The translations under genes and the position numbers were made by a program. From Candidatus Omnitrophota bacterium (GTDB taxonomy: Bacteria; Omnitrophota; Gorgyraeia; Zapsychrales; Fredricksoniimonadaceae): a stretch of 64,000 nt of DNA. Shown here piece after piece: positions 23,750 through 42,373 of this stretch. Location of the stretch: NCBI GenBank assembly GCA_903944345.1, contig CAJARJ010000020.1, forward strand, positions 18,110 through 82,109, in the 5' to 3' direction. The notes below the pieces were generated by a model. It did no database searches. It had not been told where the DNA came from and worked only from the letters and a program-made list of their open reading frames with translations. Within the stretch, counting starts at the first letter, position 1. Each line of letters begins with the position of its first letter.

Positions 23750-24856
<1,107 letters not shown>

Positions 24857-24992: not shown

Positions 24993-26270
24993 TCAGAAAT
25001 TAATCAGCAAGCCCGTGCTTTCGCTCAAAGGCTGCTCAAAATAACTCCCGCGATTTTCTTTGTACGAGTTTTCTGCCAGCAGACGAGCCCGGACAACGTC
25101 GGCAGAGCCTGACAGACGGCCCAGCATGTCCTTGTAAACAGCAGGGAAATACTCTTCTTCCCGGGCTGCAACAAGCACGGCGCGCAAAACCTCCCGCTTG
25201 TTTTCAATAATCGATCGATAGGCTTGCGGTAACCGCGGCAACAACAAACAATGCTCCAGGTAATTAATGGCCCGGATATAGACCTGCCGGGCCTCTGCCA
25301 GAGCCAGATGCGAAGAAAGCACCAAAACACGTGCTTCGCGAACAGAATCGGGCAGCATGTCCAACTGCGCCAGGATCCTGTCAGTAACCGGCACCCCGGG
25401 CAGAGACAAACGGATCAGCTTGCCCTCCGAGACCCGCCCGTCGAGCGAAAAATCTTCTGCCGCCTTCTGCCAGAGGGCGACAAACTCCTGCCGCGCCTCC
25501 GCGACAACAGAGGCAAAGGAACGTTTAGGAAAAACTTCGCTGATATCATTGGCTGTGATCACCACTTCCCCGCTGAGCGCGGCGACCTTGTCACCCTCAT
25601 TAAGCTGTGGAAGTCCCAGCAGTCCCACCGCATCACGCACAACATGCACTGACCTACGCCCGTCTTCAAGCGTCCCGGCATCCTGAATGCAGGGCAGAAA
25701 TGAAAACGGCGCTTTGACCTTGCGACAATCGCCAAGCGCCCGCATCAATCCGTTATCCTGCCTGGCCAGCAGACATTCCCGGACTGAAAGCTTGCGCAAG
25801 CGTTCGTTCAGGTTATCAGAGGGTAAATCCAGCCTTAATAGTCCCAGCTCTTCCAGCAACAAGCTCTGCATGGACTGTGTCCGGTAATGTTTAACAATAT
25901 CTGCCAGCGCGGGACTGGAATACGACAAACGCAACAGGTCATACGCACTGACCGGAACCTTATCCAGCAGGCGTCGGGATAAAAGAGGCCGCAGCCCCTC
26001 CTCAATTTCCTGCCGGAACGCCAGCTCACGATCGTCCAGGCGTACCGGCCGCAGCAGCGGGCCAGTCGAAGCCTTGTCCAGCTCGCTCACTTTGGCTTGG
26101 TGCTGTGCGCGGTCAAGGCCCGGTGTCCGATAATAACAAAACCCCCGGTCGTCAATAACCGCCTTGCGTAAACGGGTATCCGCAGGCGCGTCCGGTGCAA
26201 AAATATCAGCGGCCGCCGGCACTCCCACCAAAAGCAGAACCAGAGGGAACCATCTTAGAACAAACAGCAT
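24993..26270 (-). CDS. hypothetical secreted Leu/Arg-rich helical protein (last gene of the T4SS-like operon; TraH-sized)
   Basis: Start placed at ATG 26270 (MLFVLRWFPLVLLLVGVPAAA, signal-peptide-like), 16 nt inside the traU 3' end. No recognisable motif. Confidence 0.4.
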   Translation of the reverse strand: MLFVLRWFPLVLLLVGVPAAADIFAPDAPADTRLRKAVIDDRGFCYYRTPGLDRAQHQAKVSELDKASTGPLLRPVRLDDRELAFRQEIEEGLRPLLSRRLLDKVPVSAYDLLRLSYSSPALADIVKHYRTQSMQSLLLEELGLLRLDLPSDNLNERLRKLSVRECLLARQDNGLMRALGDCRKVKAPFSFLPCIQDAGTLEDGRRSVHVVRDAVGLLGLPQLNEGDKVAALSGEVVITANDISEVFPKRSFASVVAEARQEFVALWQKAAEDFSLDGRVSEGKLIRLSLPGVPVTDRILAQLDMLPDSVREARVLVLSSHLALAEARQVYIRAINYLEHCLLLPRLPQAYRSIIENKREVLRAVLVAAREEEYFPAVYKDMLGRLSGSADVVRARLLAENSYKENRGSYFEQPLSESTGLLINF

Positions 26271-27157
26271 TCTTTCTGTCTCCAATAAATCCAGACATAA
26301 CTGCCGTCCGCCGAACGCCGGCCGTTCTCCCACAGATCCGCCTGCTCTCCGACGCGCAAGCAACGGCTCTTTGACGGAAAGACCATCTGCAACCGATCCC
26401 TCAATTTGTCTGGCGAGAACATGGCCGGCACAATAATCCGATGCGGAACCAGCATGTTCAACGAAGCAATATCCACCGCCCGGTAGGCTGCCACGGCCGA
26501 GCCGACGGCCTCGCTATAATGAACCAGCTGTCCGGTCCGCGGAAACAACGGCCCCCAGCTGCCCAGACATGCCACAGCCGACAAAGGATGCAGGAAGTTC
26601 TCACACACCGGCCCGGCTGCGGCCAGAAGACGCGCCAGAGGATGCCCTGCTTCCCCGCGACCAACGCGCCACTCGGCAGCGTCAATCTCACTTAAATAGG
26701 ACAATGGCCCCGCAAGATCCGGGGGCCCCTCGCACGGCGCCAGAATAAGAGCAGACACCTGATCAGATAAAGGAAAACCGTAAACATGAACATCGTTCAT
26801 TTGCAAGGCCGTGGTGTCGGAGGCGTACGCGCTCCCGCTGTCGGGAGCGGCCTGACATTCCGCCGCCGCAGTAATGGTCTTGTTCCCCAATGACTGCAAA
26901 AACTTTCCCGCCAACGGACGCAATTCGTCAATCATGACCCGGCCCGGCATCTTGACGGTCTCAACAAGCAAGACCGGTTGACGGTAACGCACTCGCACCC
27001 CCACAAAAGGAGGAGTCGACCGCCGACAAACACCGATCACACGAAAATCCACACAATCCAGATCAGCGCGTAATGCCAGCGTGGACAGACTCTCAGCGCA
27101 GACAGGTACGGACAGCACAAGCCATATCAGCACAGAAACATTTATTACCCGGAACAT
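26255..27157 (-). CDS. traU: F-type conjugative-transfer pilus-assembly protein TraU family
   Basis: 300-aa Cys-rich secreted protein. ...YLSEIDAAEWR... and the C-terminal ...WIYWRQKECCLF closely parallel F-plasmid TraU (...AYLSEIDPTW... and ...LMWRKRNCVFL). AGGAG SD 7 nt upstream. Confidence 0.7.
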   Translation of the reverse strand: MFRVINVSVLIWLVLSVPVCAESLSTLALRADLDCVDFRVIGVCRRSTPPFVGVRVRYRQPVLLVETVKMPGRVMIDELRPLAGKFLQSLGNKTITAAAECQAAPDSGSAYASDTTALQMNDVHVYGFPLSDQVSALILAPCEGPPDLAGPLSYLSEIDAAEWRVGRGEAGHPLARLLAAAGPVCENFLHPLSAVACLGSWGPLFPRTGQLVHYSEAVGSAVAAYRAVDIASLNMLVPHRIIVPAMFSPDKLRDRLQMVFPSKSRCLRVGEQADLWENGRRSADGSYVWIYWRQKECCLF

Positions 27158-27178
27158 AAGAGCTCTCCTGCCGGAACA

Positions 27179-28102
27179 TCAGCCGCAACGAATGATCCAG
27201 AACATGGCCAAAGACGGCTGCATATTATTGTGCGCCTGGCCGCCCCCAGCGTTTTCTGTCGGATGAAGATATGGCACCGCCGGAATATTGTCATAATCCA
27301 GCGACTCCGCGTTCCCTTGCGCTGACCCGCCCCACCCCTGATTCTCGCTGAAAGTGTAATCATACATATTATGCTTGTGAGCGGGCATTTCCGGGATCGT
27401 CAACACATGCATCTCTGCCCCCAGCCGGCCACCTAGTACCGATGCTGACGGATGACTAACCACATTCGCCGCACTGCCCGTCATATTGTCCATTCCAATG
27501 GGCACGCGTCCCCGAAGGTCAGGCAAGGCAAACGTACTTGTTCCGTCTCCAGCACCATAAACTGTACCGATCAACGCAAACAAAAGAGTGTACTGCTCAC
27601 GTGAAATCGTCCGGCCGTCGCAAGGCAACCAACCCTCAGGTATTGTCGTGCCGGGCCAGGGGATCATGCTGCCAATCGGAAGGGCGGCATCAGGATCCTG
27701 GGCAAAACCGATATCCGACTGCACCCGGCCGTCTTGAACAACGCTTATTGGTGTCATACGCGCAACAAAGGCGGACAGCTGCGCAGGAACTTCTGTCTCA
27801 AGCATCATCCCGGCCCCCGATGAAGATAAAACATACTGACCTCCAAAAGGGTTTTTGCCCTCCCACGCCGCAGGCATATAGCCACCCTCCCTTAAATTTT
27901 GCCAATTCTGCGGCCAGACATGCTCTTTACGCTGAAATGCCCTGACAGCCTCGGTGATCCGCCCTATCTCCGCGACCGTGATGCGGGCAGCCTCAAGCTG
28001 GACACCGCGCAGAACACCGGGCACAACAATACTGACCAGAAGCCCCGCAATCAGCAGAGAAATCGACAGCTCAATCAGAGAAAATCCCTTGTCCGACCCC
28101 AT
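27179..28102 (-). CDS. type IV (pseudo)pilin with C-terminal phage tail-collar domain
   Basis: Prepilin leader MGSDKG|FSLIELSISLLIAGLL (Gly at -1, Phe at +1, Glu at +5). C-terminal half IPEGWLPCDGRTISREQYTLLFALIGTVYGAGDGTSTFALPDLRGRVPIG...HKHN matches the phage tail-collar fibre domain family (MdpB-like). Strong SD TAGGAGGTGGT before the ATG. Confidence 0.7.
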   Translation of the reverse strand: MGSDKGFSLIELSISLLIAGLLVSIVVPGVLRGVQLEAARITVAEIGRITEAVRAFQRKEHVWPQNWQNLREGGYMPAAWEGKNPFGGQYVLSSSGAGMMLETEVPAQLSAFVARMTPISVVQDGRVQSDIGFAQDPDAALPIGSMIPWPGTTIPEGWLPCDGRTISREQYTLLFALIGTVYGAGDGTSTFALPDLRGRVPIGMDNMTGSAANVVSHPSASVLGGRLGAEMHVLTIPEMPAHKHNMYDYTFSENQGWGGSAQGNAESLDYDNIPAVPYLHPTENAGGGQAHNNMQPSLAMFWIIRCG

Positions 28103-28110
28103 ACCACCTC

Positions 28111-28551: not shown

Positions 28552-28582
28552 CCGCTCCTCCTTTTTTATTTTAAAACACCCC

Positions 28583-29662
28583 TCATGGGTGCATCATCCC
28601 TATATTTGCCAGATTCCCATACAGCGGCCTGAAAAAGGCAAAAACCAGCAACGCCATCACCCCCGCACACAGAAGGATCAACGCCGGCTGCAAAAAATCA
28701 ACAACCCGCTTGACCCGGGACTCCAGAGAACGCCGGCATAGCTGGTAACCCCGGAAGAAATACTCGTCAAGGCATCCGGATAACTCCCCGACTCTAAGAG
28801 TCTCGCCAACCCAGGAAGGGAAATACGCATCCTGCAAAAACGCGGACGACAGCATCTGCCCGCTGACCAGTCTGGTCCGGCAAGAATTCATGTGATAACG
28901 AGTCCGGCCTCCCGACGCGACAGCTGCCTCCGCCAGAGATTCATCCAGAGTAATTCCGCTTTTAAGCATCAACGACAACAGAAAAAATCCCATGGCCAGC
29001 TCCCGATCCCGAATCAGTCGCCCCACAAAAGGACACCGGGCCTGCCAGCCCGAGAACACAAGCGGCTCGGTTCTTTGCACCAGCCAAAGTCCGCCAACGA
29101 TAAGTAAGACAATTCCCAGCCAAAACGGCCACTGCATCCTCACTGTGCAAGCCAGACGCAACATGCCCCCGGTCAAAGGCCCGGAAAAAGTGCTCTGCGG
29201 CAAAAGGCTGCCCAGCCGCGGAACAATCTCGAACGAAATATAACCGGCAACCAAAAGCAGAATGACCAGCACAAACAAAGGATATCCCATAGCTCCAGCC
29301 AGCTGATGTCCTACCTCGTCGCTGGCATGGTAATATTCCGCCAAAGCCCGGGCTGAACGGGAAATTTGTCCTGCCTTGCCGGCAGCGTTGAGTGCGCGCA
29401 AGGCACATTCTTCGAAAATACCGCACTCCCCCATGGCCTGCCCAAGAGACAAGCCCCGGTCAAGGGAACGAAGCATATGCGCACAGGCCCGCGCCAGCGT
29501 CCGGCTTCCGGAAGCCCCTTCGAGGCAGCGCAGCGCGGCACCAAGCGAGAGTCCGGCAGAAAGCATGTTGGAAAGATCTTCGAAAAAGAACGCGGCCTCA
29601 GCCGCCGACAGCTTCTGCCCGGAATAGAATATCCTTAACCAAGAACCCTGACCGCTTCGCAT
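28583..29662 (-). CDS. type II secretion / type IV pilus platform protein (GspF/PilC family)
   Basis: Two T2SS_F-like repeats with TM helices (..FFFEDLSNMLSAGLSLGAAL.. and ..LAEAAVASGG..). Start chosen at ATG 29662 with a GGAGG SD. The ORF is open to 29854 but would overlap the upstream ATPase by 220 nt. Confidence 0.7.
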   Translation of the reverse strand: MRSGQGSWLRIFYSGQKLSAAEAAFFFEDLSNMLSAGLSLGAALRCLEGASGSRTLARACAHMLRSLDRGLSLGQAMGECGIFEECALRALNAAGKAGQISRSARALAEYYHASDEVGHQLAGAMGYPLFVLVILLLVAGYISFEIVPRLGSLLPQSTFSGPLTGGMLRLACTVRMQWPFWLGIVLLIVGGLWLVQRTEPLVFSGWQARCPFVGRLIRDRELAMGFFLLSLMLKSGITLDESLAEAAVASGGRTRYHMNSCRTRLVSGQMLSSAFLQDAYFPSWVGETLRVGELSGCLDEYFFRGYQLCRRSLESRVKRVVDFLQPALILLCAGVMALLVFAFFRPLYGNLANIGMMHP

Positions 29663-31245
29663 AACGACAACACTCCTTCCCTGACCAAACGACATGCATC
29701 TGCACGCATAGAAACAAACCCCGCGCGGGCGGCCTGCCGGGGCACAAGTTCGCTCATTAACCCCTGCTCGATAAGAAACCGGTCTTCTTCCTCTATACAG
29801 AAAATCTCGGCCACCACTGTCCTCCCGCTGAAGCCACCCCGGCAAGCGGAGCACCCAGCGGGGACAAAAAATTTCCGGTCACTGTGCAAAAGATATGCCT
29901 CGGCACCCGAAGGGATGCCACGGATATCCCCTTCCTTACGGCATTCCGGGCACAATTTACGCACCAGACGCTGGGCTATCACACAATTTAAAGTTGCGGC
30001 CAGATGCGCCCAATCCACGCCAAGGTCTCGCAGACGAAGAAAAGCTCCGGTCGCACTATTGGTATGCAGAGTAGAAAAAACCCGATGTCCGGTCTCTGCC
30101 GCCCGGACAGCCTCGCGAGCGGTTTTCTCGTCGCGAATCTCTCCGACCAGTACAATATCCGGATCATGCCGCAACAAGGCTCTGGTCACATCCGGAAAAT
30201 CGTATCCCTTGGCGCTGTCAACACTGACCTGGGTGACACATGAAGCCCGTACTTCAACCGGATCTTCCACAGATACGATCTTGATCTCGCTATCTTTTAC
30301 CCGACCGATCATGGCATGCAGTCCAGTGGTCTTACCGCAACCGGTCGGACCGGTGATTAAAACCAGTCCATGCGGACGCCGCAAGACGCGCTCCAGCACC
30401 TTCTGGTGTTCCGGCGAATATCCAAGCGGTTCCAGGGACATGGCTTCCCGCCCGCGTTCCAAAAGACGCAAAACCAGCGCAGAACCATTTAAAGACGGCA
30501 AATGGGAAACACGCACATCGACGACCCGTCCCCTGGCCTCAAATTCGAAACGGGCATCATGGAAACGCAAAAAGTCCCCCGCGCTGATCCCGGCACGCCG
30601 AAAAACCCGATTGACAAAAAATGGATGCTCTCCCAGCGGCCAGGAACGGTGAAAATGCAAAACACCGTCGATACGCAACCGGCTCTCGAAAGAAGACGAC
30701 GAAGGCTCGATATGAATATCTGTTGCTCCGGCAACTACAGCCTCGACCAGAATCCGGGCAACAGGATCATCGTCACCGGAATCCGCCCCTTCCGGTTCAG
30801 GACTGACACCACCGCCTGAAGAAGGCCTCAACAACTGCAAGGCCCGGTCAAGAGCACGCGGGGCGGCAACCATAAAAAAGATCTGCGAACCAAAAAGAGC
30901 CCTTAACTCATCGGTCAGTCCGGTCTGCAGGGTATCAGCCAGCACAAAAAATCGGCGTACGGCGCTCCGGGCCGGAAAAATCTTGCGCTTCCTGAAAAAG
31001 TCTTCCCCCAAAGCAGACAAAGCCTCCTGATCCACGCTCCAGTCTCCGTCATAATACGGCCACCCCGACTGCTCTGCTACAGCCCGCGCCACATCTTCTT
31101 CCCGACTCAAATGCTGTTCGACCAGTATCCGTCCCAGACGCCGGCCGCCGCCCTGCGCTTTTTGCACGGCCAGACACATGCTCAAATCTCCTGGACGCAA
31201 CTTATTGCGGCGTATAAGTATAGATCCAAGCCTTTCAGCACTCAT
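29635..31245 (-). CDS. GspE/PilB-family secretion ATPase with MshEN-like N-terminal domain
   Basis: 536-aa ORF. Walker A GPTGCGKTT, Asp/His boxes, tetracysteine CPEC...CSAC. N-terminal ~140 aa resembles the T2SSE_N domain. ATGA overlap with the upstream gene. Confidence 0.85.
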   Translation of the reverse strand: MSAERLGSILIRRNKLRPGDLSMCLAVQKAQGGGRRLGRILVEQHLSREEDVARAVAEQSGWPYYDGDWSVDQEALSALGEDFFRKRKIFPARSAVRRFFVLADTLQTGLTDELRALFGSQIFFMVAAPRALDRALQLLRPSSGGGVSPEPEGADSGDDDPVARILVEAVVAGATDIHIEPSSSSFESRLRIDGVLHFHRSWPLGEHPFFVNRVFRRAGISAGDFLRFHDARFEFEARGRVVDVRVSHLPSLNGSALVLRLLERGREAMSLEPLGYSPEHQKVLERVLRRPHGLVLITGPTGCGKTTGLHAMIGRVKDSEIKIVSVEDPVEVRASCVTQVSVDSAKGYDFPDVTRALLRHDPDIVLVGEIRDEKTAREAVRAAETGHRVFSTLHTNSATGAFLRLRDLGVDWAHLAATLNCVIAQRLVRKLCPECRKEGDIRGIPSGAEAYLLHSDRKFFVPAGCSACRGGFSGRTVVAEIFCIEEEDRFLIEQGLMSELVPRQAARAGFVSMRADACRLVREGVLSLCEAVRVLG

Positions 31246-31697
31246 AACTCCACCCTCAGGACAATAGTTTCCCCCTGCGCACCTGTCAGAATTGCACCAT
31301 TTTCATCAAGCGAACTGACTTCAAAACCGCCAACACGCTCTTTTTCCCTTGCCCAAACTTGCTGGGCATCAAACTGAAAACAGCCCCGCCAAATCCCCGC
31401 GATAGAAACAACCGAACGCAAGGATAGCGTCAGCGACTGCGCCCGGGAAACCCCGTCCTTCGCTATATCACTGACCTGCAATGGGATATCCGTCCCTATT
31501 TTTTTTAACTCGTGCTCTACTCTGGCTTTTTCCAGATCAAGCTGCAACAGACGCAAGGATTGCTCTTTATCCTGCACACTGGAAGAATATGCTCTTAAGC
31601 GCGACAAAGATTCCTTCATATCCTCTTCTCCTGCTCTGACCGGACCTGACTGCAGCAAAAATGCTGCCACAATTACGGCTATTCCTGTTTTGATCAT
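31242..31697 (-). CDS. hypothetical periplasmic protein with signal peptide (part of pilus/secretion module)
   Basis: 151-aa ORF. MIKTGIAVIVAAFLLQSGPVRA signal peptide. ATGA-coupled to both neighbours. No motif recognised. Confidence 0.35.
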   Translation of the reverse strand: MIKTGIAVIVAAFLLQSGPVRAGEEDMKESLSRLRAYSSSVQDKEQSLRLLQLDLEKARVEHELKKIGTDIPLQVSDIAKDGVSRAQSLTLSLRSVVSIAGIWRGCFQFDAQQVWAREKERVGGFEVSSLDENGAILTGAQGETIVLRVEL

Positions 31698-32188
31698 CCT
31701 TTCACCTGCTCCCCTTTCACAACAATGACCAGCGTTAATACATCTTTTGTTTGTTTAAACTCTTCGAGCTCGAACAATCCTGAACGCATCCCCCCCGAGA
31801 TCACCGCCAACACCCGGCCCAGCATGGCCCGGTCACGGACAGACCCCAGCGATACCTGCAGGCGCGAAGAGTCCAACCCGTCGGCAGCCTCTGGCGAATC
31901 TGTGGAGGTCTGCCCCAAAGAGATTGTTTGCAGAAACACCGAAACTCCTTCCGCCCGGGTCAGATCCTGCAAAAATAGCGTCAGTCGTTCATGCGCCCCT
32001 GAAAGATCATCCGGTCGGCTGTGCGGTAAACTTTGCAAATTCTTTAAACGGCCCCCATCTTGCTGTAACCGGACACGAATCTCCTGCAAGGAAGTCTCCA
32101 CTGCGCGGACAGACTGGTAAACCCCAAGACCATTGTATAAACAGGACACAACCAATCCGCCGGCAAACAGCACAAGAAACAAGCGCAT
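31694..32188 (-). CDS. GspM/PilO-like bitopic inner-membrane protein (assignment by topology only)
   Basis: 164-aa ORF. N-terminal TM (LFLVLFAGGLVVSCLY) followed by a coiled-coil-like periplasmic region. Position is between the GspL-like gene and the ATPase. Confidence 0.35.
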   Translation of the reverse strand: MRLFLVLFAGGLVVSCLYNGLGVYQSVRAVETSLQEIRVRLQQDGGRLKNLQSLPHSRPDDLSGAHERLTLFLQDLTRAEGVSVFLQTISLGQTSTDSPEAADGLDSSRLQVSLGSVRDRAMLGRVLAVISGGMRSGLFELEEFKQTKDVLTLVIVVKGEQVKG

Positions 32189-32210
32189 ACCTTCCCTCTC
32201 TCAACAGACA

Positions 32211-33335
32211 TTAAAATCGCGGCTCAACCCGTACAGAGACCTCGACTGCCGGCCGTCCACCCTGAAAAATGCGGTTCAGCTTTCTTTGATGAAAAAGACC
32301 CTCCCGACCAAAACTTCCTTCTCCGCGCACAACAAGAACCGCACCAAAATGCCCTCCGCCTTGCGCATCAGCCCGCCATTGCAGGCTCGCCACAGTCCAT
32401 TCGGGCGGCATATTCCAGATCAATTGATAGAACAACTCATCAAGATTCACTGCCTGCCGGCGGCGCAAGCGTTCCTGATAGGTCTGCGCCAATGCCGAAC
32501 GCAGCAACACATACTGACTGTCCACCTCACGGCTCAACTCCGCACGTAAACTTTCCAACCGGCCAAGATGCTGACGCATAAAAAGATTACCGACGACAAG
32601 CAGACAACCAGTCCCCGCTACCAGTGCCCCTATAACCCAGGATCTTCGGCGACGCACAGAGGTTTCACGGCGTGAAAGCTCCTCAGGGGGCAGGAACCCG
32701 GTTGCAGGATTCCAGAAGCCCGCCGCCAGAAGCCCCGGCGACCCGGCGTCCATCCGCCGGGTCCGCCATCCGGTCTGTGCGGATATTTGCTCAAGACAGG
32801 GATGATTCGAAATTATGCACCGTTTATCCACAGCTGTGCACAACCTGGCACTGCGATGCAGTTCTTCCACTAACGCAGCAGTCTCCAAAGAAGGAAATTC
32901 ACGCGTCTCAACCACCCTGCCGTCCTCGATCACTGTAAGCAAGACCAAACCGCAGATTTCTTCAAGCACCATAACGACTCCGTCAGGAATACCCTGCTCG
33001 TGCCTGACAAAATATTGAGCGACCGCAAGCCCATACGGCGCGCAGCAGGCAATATTGTTCCCGGGGAACAGAGAAAAAATTTCACGGATCCGTTCAACCG
33101 GCATGGCCGCCAAAGAGAATCCCCCACCAGGCAGGCTTTGCTCCATATAAACATTGCTCTGCCCGGATGAAGTCTTGCTGTATGTCTTTTTATCCTCAAA
33201 AACAACCCCGGTCACCAGAACCTGTACCGGCTCCCGGAGAAATGAAAATTCGTCCTTAACGGCATTTCTGGGTATACGACGCAATTGTCCTTGCGTTTCA
33301 TAAATCACGCTGTCAAAAGTAAATACAAGTGTCAT
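32211..33335 (-). CDS. GspL/PilM-PilN-like protein: cytoplasmic domain, single TM, periplasmic domain (assignment by architecture)
   Basis: ATG at 33335 overlaps the secretin stop (TGATG). ~220-aa cytoplasmic region, TM (SWVIGALVAGTGCLLVVGNLFM), ~130-aa periplasmic helical region. Confidence 0.4.
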   Translation of the reverse strand: MTLVFTFDSVIYETQGQLRRIPRNAVKDEFSFLREPVQVLVTGVVFEDKKTYSKTSSGQSNVYMEQSLPGGGFSLAAMPVERIREIFSLFPGNNIACCAPYGLAVAQYFVRHEQGIPDGVVMVLEEICGLVLLTVIEDGRVVETREFPSLETAALVEELHRSARLCTAVDKRCIISNHPCLEQISAQTGWRTRRMDAGSPGLLAAGFWNPATGFLPPEELSRRETSVRRRRSWVIGALVAGTGCLLVVGNLFMRQHLGRLESLRAELSREVDSQYVLLRSALAQTYQERLRRRQAVNLDELFYQLIWNMPPEWTVASLQWRADAQGGGHFGAVLVVRGEGSFGREGLFHQRKLNRIFQGGRPAVEVSVRVEPRF

Positions 33336-34792
33336 CACAAGCCCTCCCTTGCGGGCGTCAGCATAATGACCAGTTCACTTCGGACACTCCGGCGGGTATC
33401 ATAAGAAAAGATACGCCCCAGAAACGGCAGACGGCCAAGAACCGGAACCCCGTGATGTCTGACCAGCGTATTGCGGGTAATAAGCCCACCAATAACTGCG
33501 GTCTGGCCAAAACGCAAACGCACCATGCTGCTCATCGATTTGACTGATGTTTCCGGAGCCTCAACCCGCGCGCCCTGGCCTAGCTCAACCGAACGGATAT
33601 CGTCAATCATGCTGACCACCGGAGTCACATTGATAAAAACCTCATCTCCAACAATATTCCCCATTAACTGCAGGGTCACTCCTCCATGCACATCCCCCAG
33701 GGTGACCGCGCTGATGGTCTGCCCCGTCTGGCTCATTGTGATGCCGCTCGAATCAATATAAGACCGGGTTTGCCCGACCTGGATACCGGCCAGGGTATTG
33801 TTCAGCATCGTAACCCGCGGCTGGGACACCACCTCAACCCGGCCAAAAACCTCCAGCGCGCGGATCAAGGATGTCACCCCTCCCTGGATTGCCCCTTGCC
33901 CATCTTCTGCTGACAGTTTCAAATAACCTCCGCCAGCAACATTCTCCCCGGAAAAATCCACCACGGCATTCAGGCTGTCCCGGCCTTTACGCTGAAGTAA
34001 TACGTTCCAGTCAATCCCCAGCTTGTGTTCGTTGGAAAGTTCGACTTCAACCAACTTGATATCGGCAAAGATCTGCCGCGACACCCGGGCATTGATTTCA
34101 TCCATAAATGAAGCCACCCGGCTCAACGCCACCGGCGCATCGGTAACCACCGCCAGTCCTCCGCTGCGATTCAGCGAGAGTGTCCCTGCCGGGGTCAACA
34201 AAGAACGGATATTGCGTTCAATATCATCCCAATACGACAACTCGCCGCTTTTGTTCTCCAGAAAAAGACCCGCCCCCACACGCACTCGTCCGGAGGCGCT
34301 ATTCTCTCCCGTCTGCACGCCTCCAGCCCGGCTTTCATTTGATGTCAGGCTTTCCCCTTTCTGCACAACCGGAGGAAGAAATACAGAGAAAATCCTGGTC
34401 TCGCTGGCCAGGACAACAAGATCTTCGCCCTGCTGCCGGACACCATAACCATCAGCATAAACAACGGCTTCCAATGCCCGTTCGACCGTAACCCCGGACA
34501 ACCGCAGATTGATCTCTTTGTCCCGAACACCCGGGCCGATAATCAGATTCTTACCCGCCGCATCGGCCATCAGCTGTAACACTTCATACAAACGAAAACG
34601 GCCGTTGAGCTTGACCGGCAGCGTCGGGGTTTGCTCCGGCATCTGCGCTATGGATTGACGTTCTTCCTGAATAGCCGCCGGACGGGCAGCAACACGTGCC
34701 CATTCTTCGGCCACAACCTTGTTTTCCTGCATCTCGGCCTTGGCCGGAACACTCAACAACATAAGACCCAAAAGCACCCACCCTGTTTTCAT
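33335..34792 (-). CDS. secretin (GspD/PilQ family outer-membrane channel)
   Basis: Start at ATG 34792 (MKTGWVLLGLMLLSVPAKA signal peptide; ATGA overlap with the upstream lipoprotein stop). C-terminal secretin signature ...GVPVLGRLPFLGRIFSYDTRRSVRSELVIMLTP. Confidence 0.8.
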   Translation of the reverse strand: MKTGWVLLGLMLLSVPAKAEMQENKVVAEEWARVAARPAAIQEERQSIAQMPEQTPTLPVKLNGRFRLYEVLQLMADAAGKNLIIGPGVRDKEINLRLSGVTVERALEAVVYADGYGVRQQGEDLVVLASETRIFSVFLPPVVQKGESLTSNESRAGGVQTGENSASGRVRVGAGLFLENKSGELSYWDDIERNIRSLLTPAGTLSLNRSGGLAVVTDAPVALSRVASFMDEINARVSRQIFADIKLVEVELSNEHKLGIDWNVLLQRKGRDSLNAVVDFSGENVAGGGYLKLSAEDGQGAIQGGVTSLIRALEVFGRVEVVSQPRVTMLNNTLAGIQVGQTRSYIDSSGITMSQTGQTISAVTLGDVHGGVTLQLMGNIVGDEVFINVTPVVSMIDDIRSVELGQGARVEAPETSVKSMSSMVRLRFGQTAVIGGLITRNTLVRHHGVPVLGRLPFLGRIFSYDTRRSVRSELVIMLTPAREGL

Positions 34793-35220
34793 TCGAGCTC
34801 TCCTTGCGTAATTTTCTGCCCCGATCCCGGCATCGGGGTTATGTCTGCGACAATAAACGCCCCGGAATGCGTCGGCGATTGCACCACTGGTACTGACAAA
34901 GGGAAAGCTCCGCTTTTCTTCCATTCCCCCGGGGTGATAATGACCGGCTCGGCATGCCGGGGATAAAAAACACCATCGGCAATATGCGCCGGAATGATCA
35001 CATCCTGAACCAGAGGAGCGCTCCAGCTGCCGTCAAGATACGGGAAATCATTACCGTTTAACCCTTCAACCACGTCTCCTATCTGTGCCGACACACCGGC
35101 TCGATACCCCTGCAAATACGTACCGCGTTCCCTGCGGCTGAAGTTCTTCTGCCCCACGCAACCGGCAGAGGCCAGCAGAACAACCACCAATCCCACCCAA
35201 CATCCCCTAACGTAACCCAT
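34789..35220 (-). CDS. lipoprotein (candidate secretin pilotin or TraW/TrbC-position accessory protein)
   Basis: Start at ATG 35220 (MGYVRGCWVGLVVVLLASAGC, lipobox LASAGC). 143 aa. The ORF is open further upstream but would overlap traC. Confidence 0.45.
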   Translation of the reverse strand: MGYVRGCWVGLVVVLLASAGCVGQKNFSRRERGTYLQGYRAGVSAQIGDVVEGLNGNDFPYLDGSWSAPLVQDVIIPAHIADGVFYPRHAEPVIITPGEWKKSGAFPLSVPVVQSPTHSGAFIVADITPMPGSGQKITQGELE

Positions 35221-37723
35221 GTGGCATCTTTCCGGCGCACACCATAAGCGCCCTGGTGAGGTTCCCATCCTGTTGACGACGAATTTCATCCAGAAATTCG
35301 TTCTCCCTGGCATCGCTGGTTGCCGCCCAATACAAAAAAGGATCAGGAGCCAGACGAATGACCCCGCCGCCTGTACCGGCAAGCAGCAAAGCTTCTGAAT
35401 AGCGCCCCCGCACCGTAACCAGAGAACGCAAAAGTTCCCCGGTCTGCGGACTAAAGGCCAGCTCCCGGCACAACCGTTCAATAATCCCGCTTTCCTGACG
35501 TAAAAATATCTTGTGCGCGCTATTCGCCAGGATGGCCAATCCTGCCGGCTGCTGCAACAAGTCAGCGGTTTCCTGGGTCACCGCCACAGCCGCACAGCGA
35601 TATTTCCGAAACGTTTTGAAAGCCGCCGAAATGAAATCCGCTGTCGATGACGTTTTTAACAACTGCCAGGCCTCATCAATAATCAGAAACTTGTTTTTAC
35701 CGCGCAATTCCTCGGCCGAAACAAAGCCGGTTATCAAAAACATGATATTAAGCAAGGCCACCAGTTGCAGATCCGGGTAACGGGAGATTTGTGCCAGTTC
35801 AAAGACCGTAAAACGTCCTCCGGGTGCAAATTGATTCTGCCCGTCAAAGAAAGCCCCATACTGTCCCCTGCGGGTATAGGGCATAAGTCGCAGGGCCAGG
35901 CGAAACGCCATATCTGCTCCGCTGACCCCGGCGAAACAAACCGAAGGATCTTCCAGAACGGATACCACATCGCTTAGAACCAGCTCCCGACTACTGTTTT
36001 GATCATGCCGGGCATACGCCTCCAGCACAGCCAGATGCAGAACCCCTTTCTCTTCCCGCGAAAGGCGGTCACGTTCGTCCCCTCCGCTGGCCATTAATGC
36101 CAGCATATCTACCAGAAAAGCCAGCCCCTCGGACTGAAGCGTCCTGGCAAAAGGATTTATCAACACCGGGGAAGACATATCGAGTGAAACATAGCTGCCA
36201 CCCAGCACCTCGCAGGTCTTCCGGTAAGAGTGCCCCTTGTCGAGCACAAAGAAATGCGCTCCGGTCCGGTAGTTCTGATGAATAAAATCATTGGTAAAAA
36301 ATGATTTCCCTGCTCCTGAAGCGCCAATAATCACCGCATGCGGATTGGTGTCGGAATCAAACAGATCGAAGAACACCGGCTCCCCCCTGCGGTTAAGATA
36401 AACCGCCGCCGGCGTGCCAGTTCCCTGGAAGGCCCCATATAAAGGAAGCATATCCGCAAGATTGTCCGATAACATTCGCCTTTTACGTCGGATAAAAGGT
36501 TCGCGGCGATGATCATAATTCAATGGCAGGCAAGTCAGAAACAATGACGACCCGATAGCATCTTCCCGCACAGCCTGCATTCCACTGCGGCCCAGAAGAT
36601 GAATAATATGATCGGCCTGTCGCAACGACTCCTGCTCGTCAACACTGCCGCAGACAAAATGAATCCTGGCCTCAAGAACCGACTGTCCTCCCTGAAAAAG
36701 CCGGCTAATGACCGCACTAAGCTCTTCTTTCTTGCCTACGGCCTCCTCGCTGACATCTCCCAGCGAGGAAGACCGACGGATGAAAGCAAAAGCTTTCTGT
36801 GCCTTGAGCTTGGCGAGCGCCCGGCTCTGATCAGGCACAATAAAGTTGAAGACCATAGCCATATCGCCCAGCTCATCCCAGAAGCTTCCTCTGTGCCCGG
36901 CCAGCAACATCCCGGCGAAAGTCTGTGCGGGAAGCTCTTTAATGGTGACCATCCGCAGGGTCGTGCCGTCAAGTTTCAGCCCTTCGGAAGATATTTTCAC
37001 CGGACTATACAAAAGCTGATCCCGAATAAAACCCTGATCCCGAACGGGAGGCGGAACATGCTGCGAACGGCGGGGATTGAGCATTTTATACAAAAGAGCA
37101 GTTATGTCCTTTCCATCCAGGCAGACACAGGCAAGCCCCAGTGAACGCAGACCATTCTCGATCTGGCGAACCTGCCGCAAAAATTTCTCTTTATGTTCCT
37201 GCCATTGAAGAGAAATGACGCGTGACACCTGACGAGTATCACAAAAGAAAGCCTCTGCCCTGACCCCGCCAGGCACATTCCGCCAGGAAGGAAAGACGCG
37301 CACCGAGAAAATCAGCCTGATCCGCCTGACTTTCACTCGGTCCATCGTTTGTCCGTTTCGCGCCAGTGCGACCATGGAGGTCAAACGGCTGTCAAGCGCT
37401 GCGGCCACCACTTCCGAATTCTGCGCGCAACCAAACAAGCGATAACGCTCCAGCAAAGGCTCAATATCATCACTCCCCCATAGAATCACCTGCGCGTGTA
37501 CATCCGACGGAAGAGTTCCGATAAAAGCGGCCAATCCCAAAGAAAATTTTTCCCGCTCCTCGTCACAGGCCAGCTCCACATCACGGCTGACGATTTGCCA
37601 GACCCGACCCAGGCTGCCATCAACATTCAGTAATACGCCCTCAACCTCTTCTGCATAGGGCAAGTAATCAGCCAAAGATGGGCCATCGGCAAAAAGCTTG
37701 TTTATATCCTGGTCTTTCAACAT
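35207..37723 (-). CDS. traC: F-type T4SS ATPase TraC (VirB4 family)
   Basis: 838-aa ORF. Walker A VIIGASGAGKSFFTND, Walker B FLIIDEAWQLL. Size and position (after TraV-like lipoprotein, before TraU) match F TraC. Confidence 0.8.
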   Translation of the reverse strand: MLKDQDINKLFADGPSLADYLPYAEEVEGVLLNVDGSLGRVWQIVSRDVELACDEEREKFSLGLAAFIGTLPSDVHAQVILWGSDDIEPLLERYRLFGCAQNSEVVAAALDSRLTSMVALARNGQTMDRVKVRRIRLIFSVRVFPSWRNVPGGVRAEAFFCDTRQVSRVISLQWQEHKEKFLRQVRQIENGLRSLGLACVCLDGKDITALLYKMLNPRRSQHVPPPVRDQGFIRDQLLYSPVKISSEGLKLDGTTLRMVTIKELPAQTFAGMLLAGHRGSFWDELGDMAMVFNFIVPDQSRALAKLKAQKAFAFIRRSSSLGDVSEEAVGKKEELSAVISRLFQGGQSVLEARIHFVCGSVDEQESLRQADHIIHLLGRSGMQAVREDAIGSSLFLTCLPLNYDHRREPFIRRKRRMLSDNLADMLPLYGAFQGTGTPAAVYLNRRGEPVFFDLFDSDTNPHAVIIGASGAGKSFFTNDFIHQNYRTGAHFFVLDKGHSYRKTCEVLGGSYVSLDMSSPVLINPFARTLQSEGLAFLVDMLALMASGGDERDRLSREEKGVLHLAVLEAYARHDQNSSRELVLSDVVSVLEDPSVCFAGVSGADMAFRLALRLMPYTRRGQYGAFFDGQNQFAPGGRFTVFELAQISRYPDLQLVALLNIMFLITGFVSAEELRGKNKFLIIDEAWQLLKTSSTADFISAAFKTFRKYRCAAVAVTQETADLLQQPAGLAILANSAHKIFLRQESGIIERLCRELAFSPQTGELLRSLVTVRGRYSEALLLAGTGGGVIRLAPDPFLYWAATSDARENEFLDEIRRQQDGNLTRALMVCAGKMPHGLR

Positions 37724-37725
37724 CT

Positions 37726-38133
37726 CTATGGCTCCTTGGCCGTATCCGGAACTTGCGGAATAATGACGGACATCTCCTGATCCATTCCCTGTTGTCGATC
37801 AATAAACCATTCGGCCGGGCGCAACATCACAAATGCCCAGTGCCCGCCAACCATTACCTCCCGCTCTCCTCCGGAAACATGCGCGGGCACCCAGACTTTG
37901 ATAACCTTGGGAGGAAGAACAACGGGGACATACGGCTTCACATGCCCTGTATCGACTCCCCAAACCACCGTTTGTGACTCTTTCTCTGCCCCCGAAGACC
38001 GGGCAGCAGCACGATACGTTCCTCCCAAGGTCACAGCGTCTTTCCTGACGACACTCACCGGACCTCGTGCAGACAAAGAGCAGCCGCTAGTCAACAGAAC
38101 GATAAAAATCAACCGAATCCCGAGCCATCCCAT
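37726..38133 (-). CDS. TraV-like outer-membrane lipoprotein
   Basis: 135-aa ORF. MGWLGIRLIFIVLLTSGCS lipobox. Position between TraB and TraC as in the F tra operon. No sequence motif beyond the lipobox. Confidence 0.45.
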   Translation of the reverse strand: MGWLGIRLIFIVLLTSGCSLSARGPVSVVRKDAVTLGGTYRAAARSSGAEKESQTVVWGVDTGHVKPYVPVVLPPKVIKVWVPAHVSGGEREVMVGGHWAFVMLRPAEWFIDRQQGMDQEMSVIIPQVPDTAKEP

Positions 38134-39241
38134 GGATACGAAATCCTTTCTGTACGATCACATACACACGTACTCCCGGTTGAACCATCACTGCCGGAAC
38201 AATCATGTCCAGTTGCTGCTGGTAGTACCGCGACAACTGTGCGGTGCTCTGGGCCATCCCCGAAAAAAGCGCATGTTTGGCCGCATTGCCGGTCAATGTC
38301 CGTGACTCTTTCCCGTCTTGCGTAACGGCAGAGACTTCCCCGTCGGCGACAGCCTGCGAAGCTCCGCCCATAAACCCACTCATAAACGATGCCGCCAGAC
38401 GCCCTGCGGTATTGCGCACAACCACACCTTTAAGCCCCAGCTGCCCCGAACGATCCGTCAAATACCCGAAAACTCCCGACTGTTCAAAACTTGCTCCTGT
38501 CGGAAAAACAGCCGCCAGTTTTTCCGCTTCAATCAAAGCCCGCTCGCTGTTAAGATCGCCCGTCGCCTTGCCCAGAACAAAAGCTCCTTCAAGTGCAATC
38601 GCCGAAGCATTCGGACCGGTAAAGGCTTCATCAAGCCTGATCAGGACGGGCAAAGAATTGTTCCCGTCCGCCGGAGCGTACACTCCGGTCAACAGTGTCC
38701 CCGACACAAAGCTGCCCGCCGGCAGATACACATCCATGGACTCCTGATCGGGTTCCTGCACGGCTACTATGTCAAGCTGCTGGCGTGATTCTGCCCCATT
38801 CTTGTCTGCTGGTTCGCTCCCTTCCCTACGTAACCGTTTGGCAACCGCCTGCAGGCTCAGCACAGCAGTTTTTGTTTTCTTTATCGATTCACGCATCTCC
38901 TCGAACCTGGTGTTAAGTTTTGTAACCTTGCGGGACATTTCGTCATTCTTGCGTGCGACACTGTCATATTGTTTTTCCAGGCGTTCGACATAAGCCTTGC
39001 GATCCACCTCTTCTCCCAGAAACATTCCTCTGCCCGTATCTTTAAGTTGCCCTGTCGAAGAAACAGCCTGTACGACACCATGAGACTCCTGCCCTTTGCC
39101 TCTCTCCTGTTTTGACGAAAAGACAAACATCAGGACAAAAAAAAGAGCCGCTCCCGCCGCAATAATCAGCAGACCGCTCTTCTCACTTCCGGACCCAACC
39201 CTTTCAAACAAACCGCGCAAGCGGGCTAACAAATCTTTCAT
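38087..39241 (-). CDS. traB: F-type T4SS core protein TraB (VirB10 family)
   Basis: 384-aa ORF. N-terminal TM (LLIIAAGAALFFVLMFVF), coiled-coil region, C-terminal beta-rich domain ending ...IVPAVMVQPGVRVYVIVQKGFRI typical of VirB10/TrbI. Confidence 0.65.
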   Translation of the reverse strand: MKDLLARLRGLFERVGSGSEKSGLLIIAAGAALFFVLMFVFSSKQERGKGQESHGVVQAVSSTGQLKDTGRGMFLGEEVDRKAYVERLEKQYDSVARKNDEMSRKVTKLNTRFEEMRESIKKTKTAVLSLQAVAKRLRREGSEPADKNGAESRQQLDIVAVQEPDQESMDVYLPAGSFVSGTLLTGVYAPADGNNSLPVLIRLDEAFTGPNASAIALEGAFVLGKATGDLNSERALIEAEKLAAVFPTGASFEQSGVFGYLTDRSGQLGLKGVVVRNTAGRLAASFMSGFMGGASQAVADGEVSAVTQDGKESRTLTGNAAKHALFSGMAQSTAQLSRYYQQQLDMIVPAVMVQPGVRVYVIVQKGFRIHGMARDSVDFYRSVD

Positions 39242-39957
39242 CGCCTTAACACCAGATACAGGGTTGTAGAATCACTCTTACGTCCGCGTGCCTGCAAGAT
39301 GTCTCGCTCAACCGTGCCAAGCAGCAGTCCCGGCAAACTCAACCTTTGCAGAGGAATCACCAATGCCCGACCAAGCAGATTCTCAGCCCGCACCACCCAT
39401 CCTTTAAGTTGGGCTGTCGTATAACTCCTGATCACAGTCAGACGCATGGTCTTATCCTGCCAGAGCAGCTCCGAATCGCTTGACTCCGTCGCGCCAGAAG
39501 GCTTTTGCCCTAAAACCATGGCCTTGAGCATGCCCAAAGCATGATCTTGCCTGAAGGAAACAGCGGCCGTATCTCTGGAGATATAAATACGTTCCCCCGA
39601 AAAAACCTGTTGCTCAAGAGAAAGCTCCGAGGAGGAAAACCTGATCCTGAAAGAACGACCTCCACGATCAATAATCACCAATTCAGAATTATCACAACGC
39701 CGTGGCGTAACAAAAACCCGGCCGGGCGCATGTTCTACCTCGAGCGCTTCGGAACTTCCTGAACGAACCAGGTGCGACACTCCGCCCTCGACAACTATCT
39801 CGGTCATGTGCCCCGGAGTGCACGCAATCAGGCTGCTTCCCTCTTGCTCAATACGTAGCGGCACCTGCGCCTCGGCCAAAGTACAGACAAAACATAATCC
39901 AAGAACAAAACCCAAGACCCTAAAGCGCATCCTCATCTGCCTCCTTTGACCAGACAT
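39238..39957 (-). CDS. TraK-like secreted protein (VirB9 / secretin-N-like), by size, signal peptide and position
   Basis: 239-aa ORF with signal peptide (RFRVLGFVLGLCFVCTLAEA). ATGA overlap with traB. The start may be 21-27 nt downstream. Confidence 0.5.
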   Translation of the reverse strand: MSGQRRQMRMRFRVLGFVLGLCFVCTLAEAQVPLRIEQEGSSLIACTPGHMTEIVVEGGVSHLVRSGSSEALEVEHAPGRVFVTPRRCDNSELVIIDRGGRSFRIRFSSSELSLEQQVFSGERIYISRDTAAVSFRQDHALGMLKAMVLGQKPSGATESSDSELLWQDKTMRLTVIRSYTTAQLKGWVVRAENLLGRALVIPLQRLSLPGLLLGTVERDILQARGRKSDSTTLYLVLRR

Positions 39958-40507
39958 CCTCTACAACAAGACCATAAATATTCTCTCCAGCCGCCGGGAC
40001 TCGCCGCACAACAACAACATAACGCACATCTTTCATTGCAATTTCTTCCTTGCCCATATAAACCCCGCGCTTGCCGTCGATTTCTACCCGGAATGAGCGC
40101 CCTTCGGAAGCAACCCGTGCGTCATCTGTAAGCGTAAATATCGATGAAAGCCGGTCAGAAAGAATCTTTCCGCGTTCCTCCTGCGAACGGGCGCGGACTT
40201 TGGAAAGCAGCTGTGGTCCCATAAACCGGAAAGCCCGCGAATAAACTCCGTCAATCGTCTCTGGAGTATAATTCATCCAGTCCATTAACCAGGCCGAAGC
40301 GAAAGAAAGAACCGAACTTTCTGGTATCCGGTCGGGATAAGCCAGGCCCGCTTGTGCTGCCCCCGGAATATAATAGATCGGACGGGGCCGAAACGCTGTC
40401 ACCGCCAGCAATACAGCGAATATCACGCTTAAGCTTCCCAAAAGATAAAGAACATAATGCAGTTTTACATTCTCGAATTCCGCTCCGGCATAACGTTCAA
40501 AAAACAT
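39920..40507 (-). CDS. TraE-like bitopic protein (VirB8-like) of F-type T4SS
   Basis: Start at ATG 40507 with AAGGAAGG SD (MFFERYAGAEFENVKLHYVLYLLGSLSVIFAVLLAV). N-terminal TM plus periplasmic domain. Size 195 aa versus F TraE 188 aa. Confidence 0.55.
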   Translation of the reverse strand: MFFERYAGAEFENVKLHYVLYLLGSLSVIFAVLLAVTAFRPRPIYYIPGAAQAGLAYPDRIPESSVLSFASAWLMDWMNYTPETIDGVYSRAFRFMGPQLLSKVRARSQEERGKILSDRLSSIFTLTDDARVASEGRSFRVEIDGKRGVYMGKEEIAMKDVRYVVVVRRVPAAGENIYGLVVEDVWSKEADEDAL

Positions 40508-40793
40508 CCTGGCCTTCCTTGCTATAAATGCTGTAAAAACGCTCGGGCCCCGGCGGCAGCAATCCTCTGAAGCCAACTCCCTGCCGGTACAGCCAATGAA
40601 TCAGATATCCTTCCGGTTTCCCGCGCTTGAACGCGGCCAGACATGGCCAGATGAAAAACAACGCGATCAACGGAACTGCCGGAGAAAACACAATTGCCGG
40701 TACCCCGCACAATAAAAGAATCACAGCGACATCTTCACCCTCAAGGCCCAGAATAAGAAGAGGCCGGTCAATTGTTCTTGGACACGGTTTCAT
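40497..40793 (-). CDS. TraL-like small membrane protein (VirB3-like)
   Basis: 98-aa ORF. ...RTIDRPLLILGLEGEDVAVILLLCGVPAIVF... resembles the TraL/VirB3 N-terminal motif (P..i.GL...E...). Position right after the pilin gene as in F. Confidence 0.55.
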   Translation of the reverse strand: MKPCPRTIDRPLLILGLEGEDVAVILLLCGVPAIVFSPAVPLIALFFIWPCLAAFKRGKPEGYLIHWLYRQGVGFRGLLPPGPERFYSIYSKEGQDVF

Positions 40794-40794
40794 T

Positions 40795-42332: not shown

Positions 42333-42373
42333 TAGATTGTCCAATGGTCAATTTAGTTGACAATTACTCAACA

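Follow-up and report, generated by a model that had tools for sequence, protein, structure and literature searches.

A type IV pilin carrying a phage tail-collar domain in a combined pilus and type IV secretion operon of a Candidatus Omnitrophota bacterium

The fusion gene and its two halves

The DNA analysed here (the window) is a 64-kb stretch of contig CAJARJ010000020.1 from a Candidatus Omnitrophota bacterium. It contains, on the minus strand at positions 27179-28102, an ATG-initiated open reading frame (ORF) of 307 amino acids (aa) in which a type IV pilin module is followed by a phage-type tail-collar domain. An earlier note, made from the sequence alone, had described this ORF as a prepilin fused to such a domain and had seen in it a tip adhesin. 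The gene and its parts were delineated as follows.

27179..28102, minus strand: whole gene, modular minor pilin of 307 aa made of a pilin module, a linker and a phage tail-fibre receptor-binding domain (ORF; Pfam N_methyl, Collar and Gp10_C; AlphaFold2; fold matches to pilins and tail fibres)
28085..28102, minus strand: class III leader MGSDKG, six residues, ending in the Gly (-1) of the prepilin-peptidase site (sequence reading; N_methyl, TIGR02532)
27710..28084, minus strand: pilin module, aa 7-131, a long alpha-1 helix (aa 9-60) and a small beta-sheet head; paralogue of the adjoining 146-aa pilin
27674..27709, minus strand: linker, aa 132-143 (IGFAQDPDAALP), of lower confidence (dip in the predicted local confidence score, pLDDT; sequence and length vary among homologues)
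27500..27673, minus strand: tail-collar core, aa 144-201 (GSMIPW...WLPCDG...TFALPDLRGRVP) (Pfam Collar)
27182..27499, minus strand: distal receptor-binding part, aa 202-307, ending in a conserved HNNMQPS...FWII strand
27371..27379, minus strand: HxH motif H242-K-H244, presumed metal site on the threefold axis (aligned to the HKH of T4 gp12)

The N-terminus of the protein (MGSDKG/FSLIELSISLLIAGLLV) displayed Gly at position -1, Phe at +1 and Glu at +5, and its short basic leader was followed by a hydrophobic segment of about 20 residues (MGSDKG/FSLIELSISLLIAGLLVSIVV), as in type IV pilin signals. Both N_methyl (PF07963; 22.2 bits for a curated cut-off of 21.2) and TIGR02532 (25.1 bits for a curated cut-off of 16.3) scored above their thresholds, which confirmed the prepilin signal reported in the earlier note. 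The same pattern (G, A or S at -1, F at +1, E at +5) was kept in 16 out of 17 fusion homologues. The pilin module shared 28% identity with the neighbouring 146-aa pilin.

The tail-collar domain and its motifs were likewise found as they had been described (IPEGWLPCDGR...LFALIGTVYGAGDGTSTFALPDLRGRVPIG). Pfam Collar (PF07484) matched aa 144-201 over profile positions 1-57 of 57, with an E value of 8.9e-26 and 90.1 bits for a cut-off of 24, well within the region (aa ~120-300) where the family had been predicted. A match to phrog_9116 ('tail protein', E 1.6e-38) extended beyond this 57-residue core and spanned the full C-terminal half (aa 123-307), while Gp10_C matched aa 198-305 weakly. Sequence matches of the C-terminal half in the PDB were T4 gp12, T4 gp37 and a cyanophage fibre. 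The solved phage-fibre relatives that were found (gp12, gp37, gp10 and the fibre of cyanophage A-1(L), 8kec) are all trimeric fibres, as is established for gp12, gp37 and gp10. In the HMMER alignment, H242-K-H244 coincided with the HKH of T4 gp12, whose metal site holds Zn. Among the 17 fusions, H242 was present in 16 and H244 in 14, and both were found in 59 of the 66 sequences of a wider collar alignment.

Predicted structure

An AlphaFold2 model of the monomer, built on 66 sequences, had a mean pLDDT of 85.9. The N-terminal module was predicted to adopt the pilin fold, an N-terminal helix packed on an antiparallel beta-sheet, with pLDDT values over 90 for the helix (aa 9-60) and for the sheet up to aa 131. 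Values dropped to 68 in the linker region (aa 131-140) and ranged from 49 to 97 in the C-terminal domain. Foldseek comparison with the PDB ranked first the cyanophage A-1(L) fibre, the receptor-binding domain of T4 gp12, the fibre of Pseudomonas phage Pa223 and the gp37 tip, followed by the Bizionia C24 protein and C. difficile PilA1. Against predicted viral structures, 130 matches were obtained at E <= 0.001; among the best 50 of these, every named one was a tail-collar, tail-fibre or baseplate protein. Structure prediction, which had been suggested as a check, thus recovered both the pilin and the tail-fibre fold in the model, and since sequence and predicted fold agree, both halves of the two-domain description are supported.

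Family, distribution and selection

The exact fusion protein was present on contigs of several independent assemblies. An orthologue at 90% identity lay in the same gene order, which included the flanking genes for GAPDH, a 1980-aa surface protein and MTHFR. Codon differences between the two orthologues amounted to 75 synonymous versus 32 non-synonymous, distributed across both halves; purifying selection acts on the fusion gene. Relatives over the full length, with 27-43% identity, were found in at least 8 other loci, from metagenome-assembled genomes (MAGs) labelled Omnitrophota (L003) or Planctomycetales (L010 and L049), from an unclassified MAG (L005) and from metagenome contigs (L087, L088, L093 and L096). 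The locus search relied on a six-sequence alignment with patterns taken from the collar domain, and the 80 genome loci that it returned mostly held free-standing collar proteins and did not include the genome to which the window belongs. The fusion being kept in distant genomes, the frameshift artefact that the earlier note had envisaged is excluded.

The same data bear on the possibility that the ORF is not a true pilin at all, being instead what is left of a prophage tail fibre, with an N-terminus that is hydrophobic by chance, or a fusion created by sequencing or assembly. Fibres on viral contigs do carry the same C-terminal domain at up to 45% identity, and an Omnitrophota homologue is labelled 'tail fiber protein' at NCBI. 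However, the pilin half was absent from all of the best 80 viral matches, where the single long match was an ordinary fibre, and no phage genes were found in the window. Furthermore, the confident pilin fold predicted for the N-terminal 131 residues, the selection acting on both halves, and the recurrence of the fusion in independent assemblies and in remote relatives all contradict this explanation, which can be considered effectively refuted. A plasmid search with the collar half retrieved solely 'tail fiber' genes devoid of a pilin part.

The two-domain architecture was common to about 20-25 distinct relatives. When the pilin half was used by itself in an exhaustive HMMER search, 187 cluster representatives were obtained. 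Among the 108 homologues of at least 200 aa, N_methyl was detected in 82 and Collar in 20, together with weak matches to T2SSG (3) and Shufflon_N (1); searching the C-terminal half against the same set of homologues gave about 25 collar-type domains. In an alignment of 17 fusions, W63, P64, P85 and Y90 of the pilin head were invariant (N84 was found in 16), as were C161, G163, T190, F191, P194 and D195 of the collar. The collar domains of the fusions were mutual best matches among 91 collar domains compared, a set whose non-fusion members were mostly the nearest non-pilin matches from 5.8 billion proteins. Their mutual proximity points to one old fusion event behind the collar pilins. Other members of the pilin-module family displayed, in place of the collar, C-terminal coiled coils or domains without a match. 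The coiled-coil segments matched coiled-coil families weakly, two of which are trimeric (TolA_bind_tri and LPP). Such a variety of C-terminal modules fits an exchangeable tip module.

Two side observations concern proteins related to one half or the other. A protein of 1603 aa (P0143) contained 19 separate stretches resembling residues 55-102 of the pilin module and appears to consist of tandem copies of the pilin-head motif. Four collar-domain proteins (P0031, P0062, P0081 and P0084) were filed under bdelloid rotifer names (Rotaria); they may represent bacterial contamination or horizontally acquired genes.

The surrounding operon

The fusion gene was the sixteenth of eighteen co-directional and tightly packed genes, extending over 17.4 kb from 42344 to 24993. 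In the order of transcription, these encode a 421-aa membrane protein, a 95-aa TraA/VirB2-like pilin, TraL, TraE, a TraK-like protein, TraB, a TraV-like protein and TraC, then a 143-aa ORF, a secretin, proteins of 375, 164 and 151 aa, an ATPase, a platform protein, the 146-aa pilin, the fusion pilin, TraU and a 425-aa protein. The position given in the earlier note, after a short pilin and before traU, was correct, the gaps being 8 bp on the side of the 146-aa pilin and 21 bp on the side of traU. The features of the operon other than the fusion gene are listed below.

42374..42401, minus strand: promoter-like site TTGACA-16-TATATT with TG, 30 bp upstream of the first operon gene (consensus scan, 11/12, best of a 19-kb region; a consensus match only)
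34789..42344, minus strand: type IV secretion genes, by rising coordinate a 143-aa ORF, TraC/VirB4 (35207-37723), TraV-like, TraB/VirB10-like, TraK-like, TraE, TraL, TraA/VirB2-like pilin and a 421-aa TraG_N-like membrane protein
33335..34792, minus strand: secretin, MshL/PilN-like, 485 aa as called in an orthologous contig (Pfam Secretin, E 1.6e-28)
31242..33338, minus strand: three conserved genes (151, 164 and 375 aa) in the PilP-/PilO-type positions of conjugative thin-pilus operons (position kept in L001, L087, L093 and L096)
29635..31245, minus strand: pilus assembly ATPase, GspE/PilB family, with an N-terminal MshEN-type domain binding cyclic di-GMP (c-di-GMP) (Pfam T2SSE, E 3e-97; MshEN)
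28583..29662, minus strand: pilus platform protein, GspF/PilC family, 359 aa (Pfam T2SSF; TIGR02120, 126 bits; gene call in the identical contig L084)
28111..28551, minus strand: 146-aa type IV pilin, presumed major subunit, PilS-like (N_methyl, TIGR02532)
26255..27157, minus strand: TraU homologue directly downstream of the fusion pilin (Pfam TraU, E 3e-28)
24993..26270, minus strand: 425-aa protein, divergent TraH homologue, last gene of the operon (via the L096 homologue)

The set of secretion genes corresponded to that of F/G-type systems, with VirB4/TraC accompanied by TraL, TraE, TraK, TraB, TraV and a VirB2-like pilin, as well as TraU and TraH. TraC (TraC_F_IV), TraB (TrbI), TraE and TraL matched above Pfam cut-offs, and TrbC/VirB2, TraV, TraK_C and TraG_N were weak matches. 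TraC obtained an F-type score of 392 bits, while TraU scored 63 bits with TIGR03756 (family of integrative and conjugative elements) versus 27 bits with the F-type TraU model. The secretin reached 184 bits with MshL and 153 bits with PilN, both under the cut-offs. NCBIfam scores were all below the family-specific (equivalog) cut-offs and therefore indicate a divergent lineage; by this sequence measure, the secretion genes are a deep, undescribed branch of F/G-like systems. In plasmid searches, TraU relatives were found at 22-27% identity, those of the ATPase and TraU being overall distant and generic (22-36%).

Several proteins of the operon were less easily assigned. No Pfam or NCBIfam matches were obtained for the proteins of 151, 164 and 375 aa, the last of which also lacked a PDB match, nor was a Pfam match obtained for the small ORF after TraC in its full 230-aa form. 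The 425-aa protein gave no direct Pfam or NCBIfam match, its four-sequence profile had no sequence match in the PDB, and its single-sequence model had a pLDDT of 37.6. Its homologue in L096 (9134-10414; 26% identity, E 2e-18) matched Pfam TraH above the cut-off (E 1.7e-11), and in that locus a TraF-like gene with a thioredoxin fold lay between TraU and TraH. The MshEN domain of the ATPase was detected at 22.4 bits by Pfam and at 37.9 bits by NF053729, for a cut-off of 38 in the latter case. Its presence suggests that pilus assembly may be controlled by c-di-GMP, as in MSHA pili. Across lineages, the 146-aa pilin was better conserved (56-61% identity) than the fusion pilin (about 40%).

Housekeeping genes flank the operon, with rmlBDCA on its upstream side and GAPDH and MTHFR on its downstream side, and the window contains one tRNA-Gln and no rRNA. 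No relaxase, coupling protein, integrase, recombinase, prepilin peptidase or PilT-type retraction ATPase was found within the window, and in L087, L093 and L096 the stretch directly after the operon held neither relaxase nor coupling protein. As regards the A24 prepilin peptidase in particular, none was detected among the window ORFs of at least 120 aa scanned against Pfam; ATPase, platform, secretin and a second pilin were located directly upstream of the fusion gene.

A few further observations were made on the neighbourhood. G+C content was 0.53-0.57 in the operon (24000-40000) and the adjoining 16-24 kb stretch, versus 0.43-0.52 in the regions of 1-10 kb and 40-62 kb; the shift is modest, and neither an integrase nor a boundary marked by repeats was observed. 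The GAPDH (23750-24811, minus strand) was closest to the glycosomal GAPDH of kinetoplastids (PDB 1gyp, 1a7k, 1k3t and 2x0n; about 600 bits, the next solved GAPDH scoring 394 bits) and was 99% identical in the related genome L001. Beyond it, the 1980-aa protein (17598-23540, minus strand), also kept in L001, displayed PKD and InlB B-repeat-like domains along with a weak papain-like peptidase match, and may be a surface adhesin or protease. Radical SAM genes were unusually dense (797-2443, 3860-4927, 5858-6859, 7689-9134 and 15218-16693 (-)); three had B12-binding domains and one a SPASM domain, and they were interspersed with genes for heptosyltransferase-like proteins, methyltransferases and UbiA prenyltransferases.

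Conservation of the gene order

The order ATPase, platform, pilin, (extra small pilin), fusion, TraU, (small ORF), TraH was found in L001, L003, L087/L088, L093 and L096. In L010 it was the same up to the fusion pilin, where the contig ends, and partial forms were observed in L005, L049 and L094. In all seven other loci that could be read there (L001, L003, L005, L049, L087, L093 and L096), the collar gene had TraU as its next or next-but-one neighbour, the fusion gene directly adjoining TraU in L005 and L049; in L094 a collar-type C-terminus precedes TraU, with one small gene between them. In the unclassified MAG BP4.bin41 (L005, 7302-8715), the fusion and TraU genes came directly after housekeeping genes (for shikimate kinase, DprA, topoisomerase I and a XerC-like protein). 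This pair, found without ATPase, platform or major pilin upstream, makes pilin and TraU the most tightly linked unit. As a side observation, the platform gene was apparently split into two ORFs in L087 (6864-9115) and L088 (4763-6992), where a DUF1016/YhcG-type gene was also inserted between the platform and major pilin genes.

These arrangements are relevant to whether the pilus module is functionally separate from the tra genes, forming a filament for adhesion, motility, DNA uptake or type II-like secretion, its placement within the tra operon being accidental. ATPase, platform and secretin are indeed nearest to the GspE/PilB, GspF and MshL-type families, the MshEN domain recalls MSHA adhesion pili, and the pilin module gave weak matches to GspG; in L003, moreover, the pilus genes were preceded by housekeeping genes and not by TraC. 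On the other hand, in each locus inspected, L003 and L005 among them, the pilus module had TraU and a TraH-like gene joined to its end. TraC and the secretin, both upstream of the pilus genes in L001, L010 and L087, were contiguous and co-directional with small gaps in these three loci and in the window, where one promoter-like site precedes the entire block. A pilus module that works on its own, placed there by accident, appears distinctly improbable.

Proposed function

We consider it fairly probable that the protein is a modular minor type IV pilin acting as a trimeric tip adhesin, whose phage-type glycan binder would serve the surrounding secretion genes. According to this proposal, a prepilin peptidase encoded elsewhere would cleave the six-residue leader, and the N-terminal pilin module would dock into the filament assembled by the ATPase, platform and secretin whose genes lie immediately upstream. 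Since the bulky C-terminal half is presumably too large for the filament lattice, the protein would be found at the filament tip, a position which has been argued for modular pilins in general (PMC8179133). Three copies would form a 'knitted' (intertwined) trimer capping and nucleating the pilus, as CofB/TcpB minor pilins do: CofB is a homotrimeric minor pilin located at the tip, where it caps and initiates the pilus (PMC6048534). In trimeric phage fibres, HxH pairs contributed by the three chains hold a metal ion at the axis of the fibre (PMC11705849). Because the HxH site is conserved in the fusion pilins and lies on the threefold axis in phage fibres, a homotrimer may be expected here as well, and the 12-residue linkers would absorb the helical stagger of its three pilin modules.

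Such a trimer would bind a surface polysaccharide, for example lipopolysaccharide (LPS), on another cell. By analogy, a surface polysaccharide is the most likely ligand: T4 gp12 binds the LPS core. Among pili, the PilV adhesins of IncI plasmids, which belong to conjugative thin pili, recognise recipient LPS (PMC9045228), and so does PilV2 of PAPI-1, a conjugative thin-pilus minor pilin (PMC5297154). The tip would then select and hold a partner cell for the secretion machine. As the pilus genes lie inside a tra operon (TraA-L-E-K-B-V-C ... TraU-TraH) and are attached to traU and traH, the tip probably picks the cell that is engaged. The suggestion of the earlier note, that a minor-pilin adhesin at the tip might specify the target of the whole apparatus, agrees with this best explanation; as an argument, it draws on homology and on the published cases of modular pilins, PilV and CofB/TcpB.

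Several observations weigh against a tip adhesin of this kind. Between close relatives, the fusion pilin was no more divergent than its neighbours (89.6% identity, versus 87.7% for TraU) and hence gave no hint of diversifying selection, to which adhesins are often subject. The distal domain had pLDDT values of 49-83, in a monomer model, and we know of no established function for free-standing bacterial collar proteins (MdpB-like). Moreover, the fusion-TraU pair of L005 lacks pilus genes upstream, and in addition to prepilin peptidase, retraction ATPase, coupling protein and relaxase, TraN and the C-terminal domain of TraG were missing from the 64-kb window.

Part of these data could also be accommodated if the collar were mainly a trimerisation and initiation device, or a dock for a secreted partner in the manner of CofB and CofJ, without binding the target itself, specificity being located elsewhere. 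CofB has to trimerise if pili are to be assembled, and the ligand of its lectin-like pockets is a secreted protein, not a sugar (PMC6048534). The best-conserved features of the collar are structural and metal-site residues, the divergence of the protein between close relatives is not elevated, and pilin-module relatives carry in place of the collar the coiled coils with weak matches to trimeric families. Nevertheless, the entire gp12-type receptor-binding domain has been kept, distal part included, which is more than a mere trimerising stalk would comprise; in phages this domain is the receptor-contacting part, and no cofJ-like gene for a small secreted protein was evident in the operon. A collar that does not itself bind the target is regarded as unlikely, and a target-binding tip adhesin remains the preferred explanation.

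A broader reading of the whole locus, which took into account the related loci of MAGs labelled Omnitrophota and Planctomycetales, is put forward quite tentatively. The 17.4-kb operon might encode a non-conjugative contact apparatus, fixed in the chromosome, in which a pilus capped by a phage-type trimer would capture a specific host, prey or partner cell, a relaxase-less F/G-like machine would move protein or DNA across the contact, and TraU and TraH would physically link both machines. If this were true, the operon would stand for a new class of hybrid pilus-secretion systems with phage-derived targeting.

In the fusion pilin, the receptor-binding head of a phage has clearly been transferred to a subunit of a bacterial pilus, and one recognition module would thus serve infection and cell-cell contact alike. 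Since phages contain the collar-type fibre domain as an obligate trimer, the protein also provides a simple test of whether the assembly of type IV pili begins with a tip of three subunits. As a marker, the family points to a conserved hybrid operon, in which pilus genes are combined with those for type IV secretion, in bacteria that are poorly known and possibly dependent on hosts, and the receptor of the tip domain could show which cells these organisms contact. Tip domains being exchangeable in principle, a retargeting of pili or of conjugation can be envisaged.

Comparison with known systems

The closest general parallel is found in the widespread modular pilins, such as PilB and PilC of Streptococcus sanguinis, which likewise consist of a small N-terminal pilin module, a short linker and a ligand-binding module, and which are proposed to lie at the tip and to make the filament adhesive (PMC8179133). 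In the fusion pilin, unlike in these, the grafted module is a phage tail-fibre receptor-binding domain. Among InterPro entries, we take IPR011083 to be that of the tail collar and IPR007001 that of the shufflon N-terminal region. In the catalogue of 264 modular-pilin architectures compiled from InterPro by Raynaud et al. in 2021, IPR011083 appeared just twice, once after IPR007001 and once after IPR003961, and the two-module form with a plain pilin followed by IPR011083 was missing (PMC8179133).

With CofB and TcpB, the protein shares a pilin domain and C-terminal beta-rich domains borne on a flexible linker, in proteins whose homotrimer at the tip initiates assembly and contacts the ligand (PMC6048534). 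The C-terminal beta-repeat and H-type lectin domains that characterise CofB and TcpB were not found in the fusion pilin. As for T4 gp12, the gp37 tip, the C-terminal domain of gp10, the cyanophage A-1(L) fibre and the MdpB-like Bizionia C24 protein (6ov6), they share this domain, HxH motif included, as judged from both sequence and predicted fold, but carry it on a phage baseplate or fibre shaft, or free-standing, whereas here it is borne by a pilin.

Similarities with the PilV proteins of IncI plasmids (R64, R721 and TP114) and with PilV2 of PAPI-1 concern the layout of the locus. In all of them, the gene is the last pilin gene of an operon running from secretin through ATPase, platform and major pilin to minor pilin, beside a type IV secretion system, and PilV and PilV2 are known to bind recipient LPS and to stabilise mating pairs (PMC9045228, PMC5297154). 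Unlike the shufflon PilV operons, the present one has no shufflon and no gene for Rci, prepilin peptidase or transglycosylase, and no relaxase or coupling protein nearby. With R721 PilV as the shufflon PilV reference, BLASTP alignment with the fusion pilin was limited to the signal-peptide region (aa 3-35). The fusion pilin had no match to PF04917 (Shufflon_N, a constant region of ~320 residues) at E <= 0.01, whereas R721 PilV scored 557 bits. The comparison with R64 PilV proposed in the earlier note consequently holds as a functional analogy but not as membership of the Shufflon_N family. Its view that the C-termini of R64-type PilV derive from tail-fibre segments is unsupported, since R721 PilV displayed Shufflon_N and no Collar, in agreement with Milman et al. 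(PMC9881135). The paralogous cassettes or invertible segments that it had proposed to look for were not encountered in the window, which showed no second collar-like segment in any frame and no recombinase. A shufflon at the fusion locus was rejected, only short repeats at chance level being present and no sfx-like inverted repeats.

One fusion of a PilV with a phage tail collar is on record. It was reported by Milman et al. in 2023 from Pectobacterium brasiliense (UCP91044.1), where it is rearranged by a shufflon and was proposed to set the specificity of conjugation, earlier shufflon PilV proteins having no collar domain (PMC9881135). Like the protein described here, it is a minor pilin with PF07484 encoded among pilus genes. 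It differs by its large Shufflon_N constant region and by programmed inversions; the fusion pilin has instead a small GspG-like pilin module, with neither Shufflon_N nor invertible cassettes, and lies inside a tra operon of uncultivated lineages. Judging from its sequence, the fusion pilin belongs to both the type IV pilin and the tail-collar domain families; it is analogous to PilV, CofB and TcpB and a member of none of them. Modular tip pilins and one PilV-collar fusion having already been published, the combination of collar and pilin has thus been noted once, on another scaffold. The less expected part is the setting in which it is found, with no conjugation genes nearby: a conserved, chromosomally embedded operon of uncultivated lineages, in which an F/G-like secretion system and a pilus are combined.

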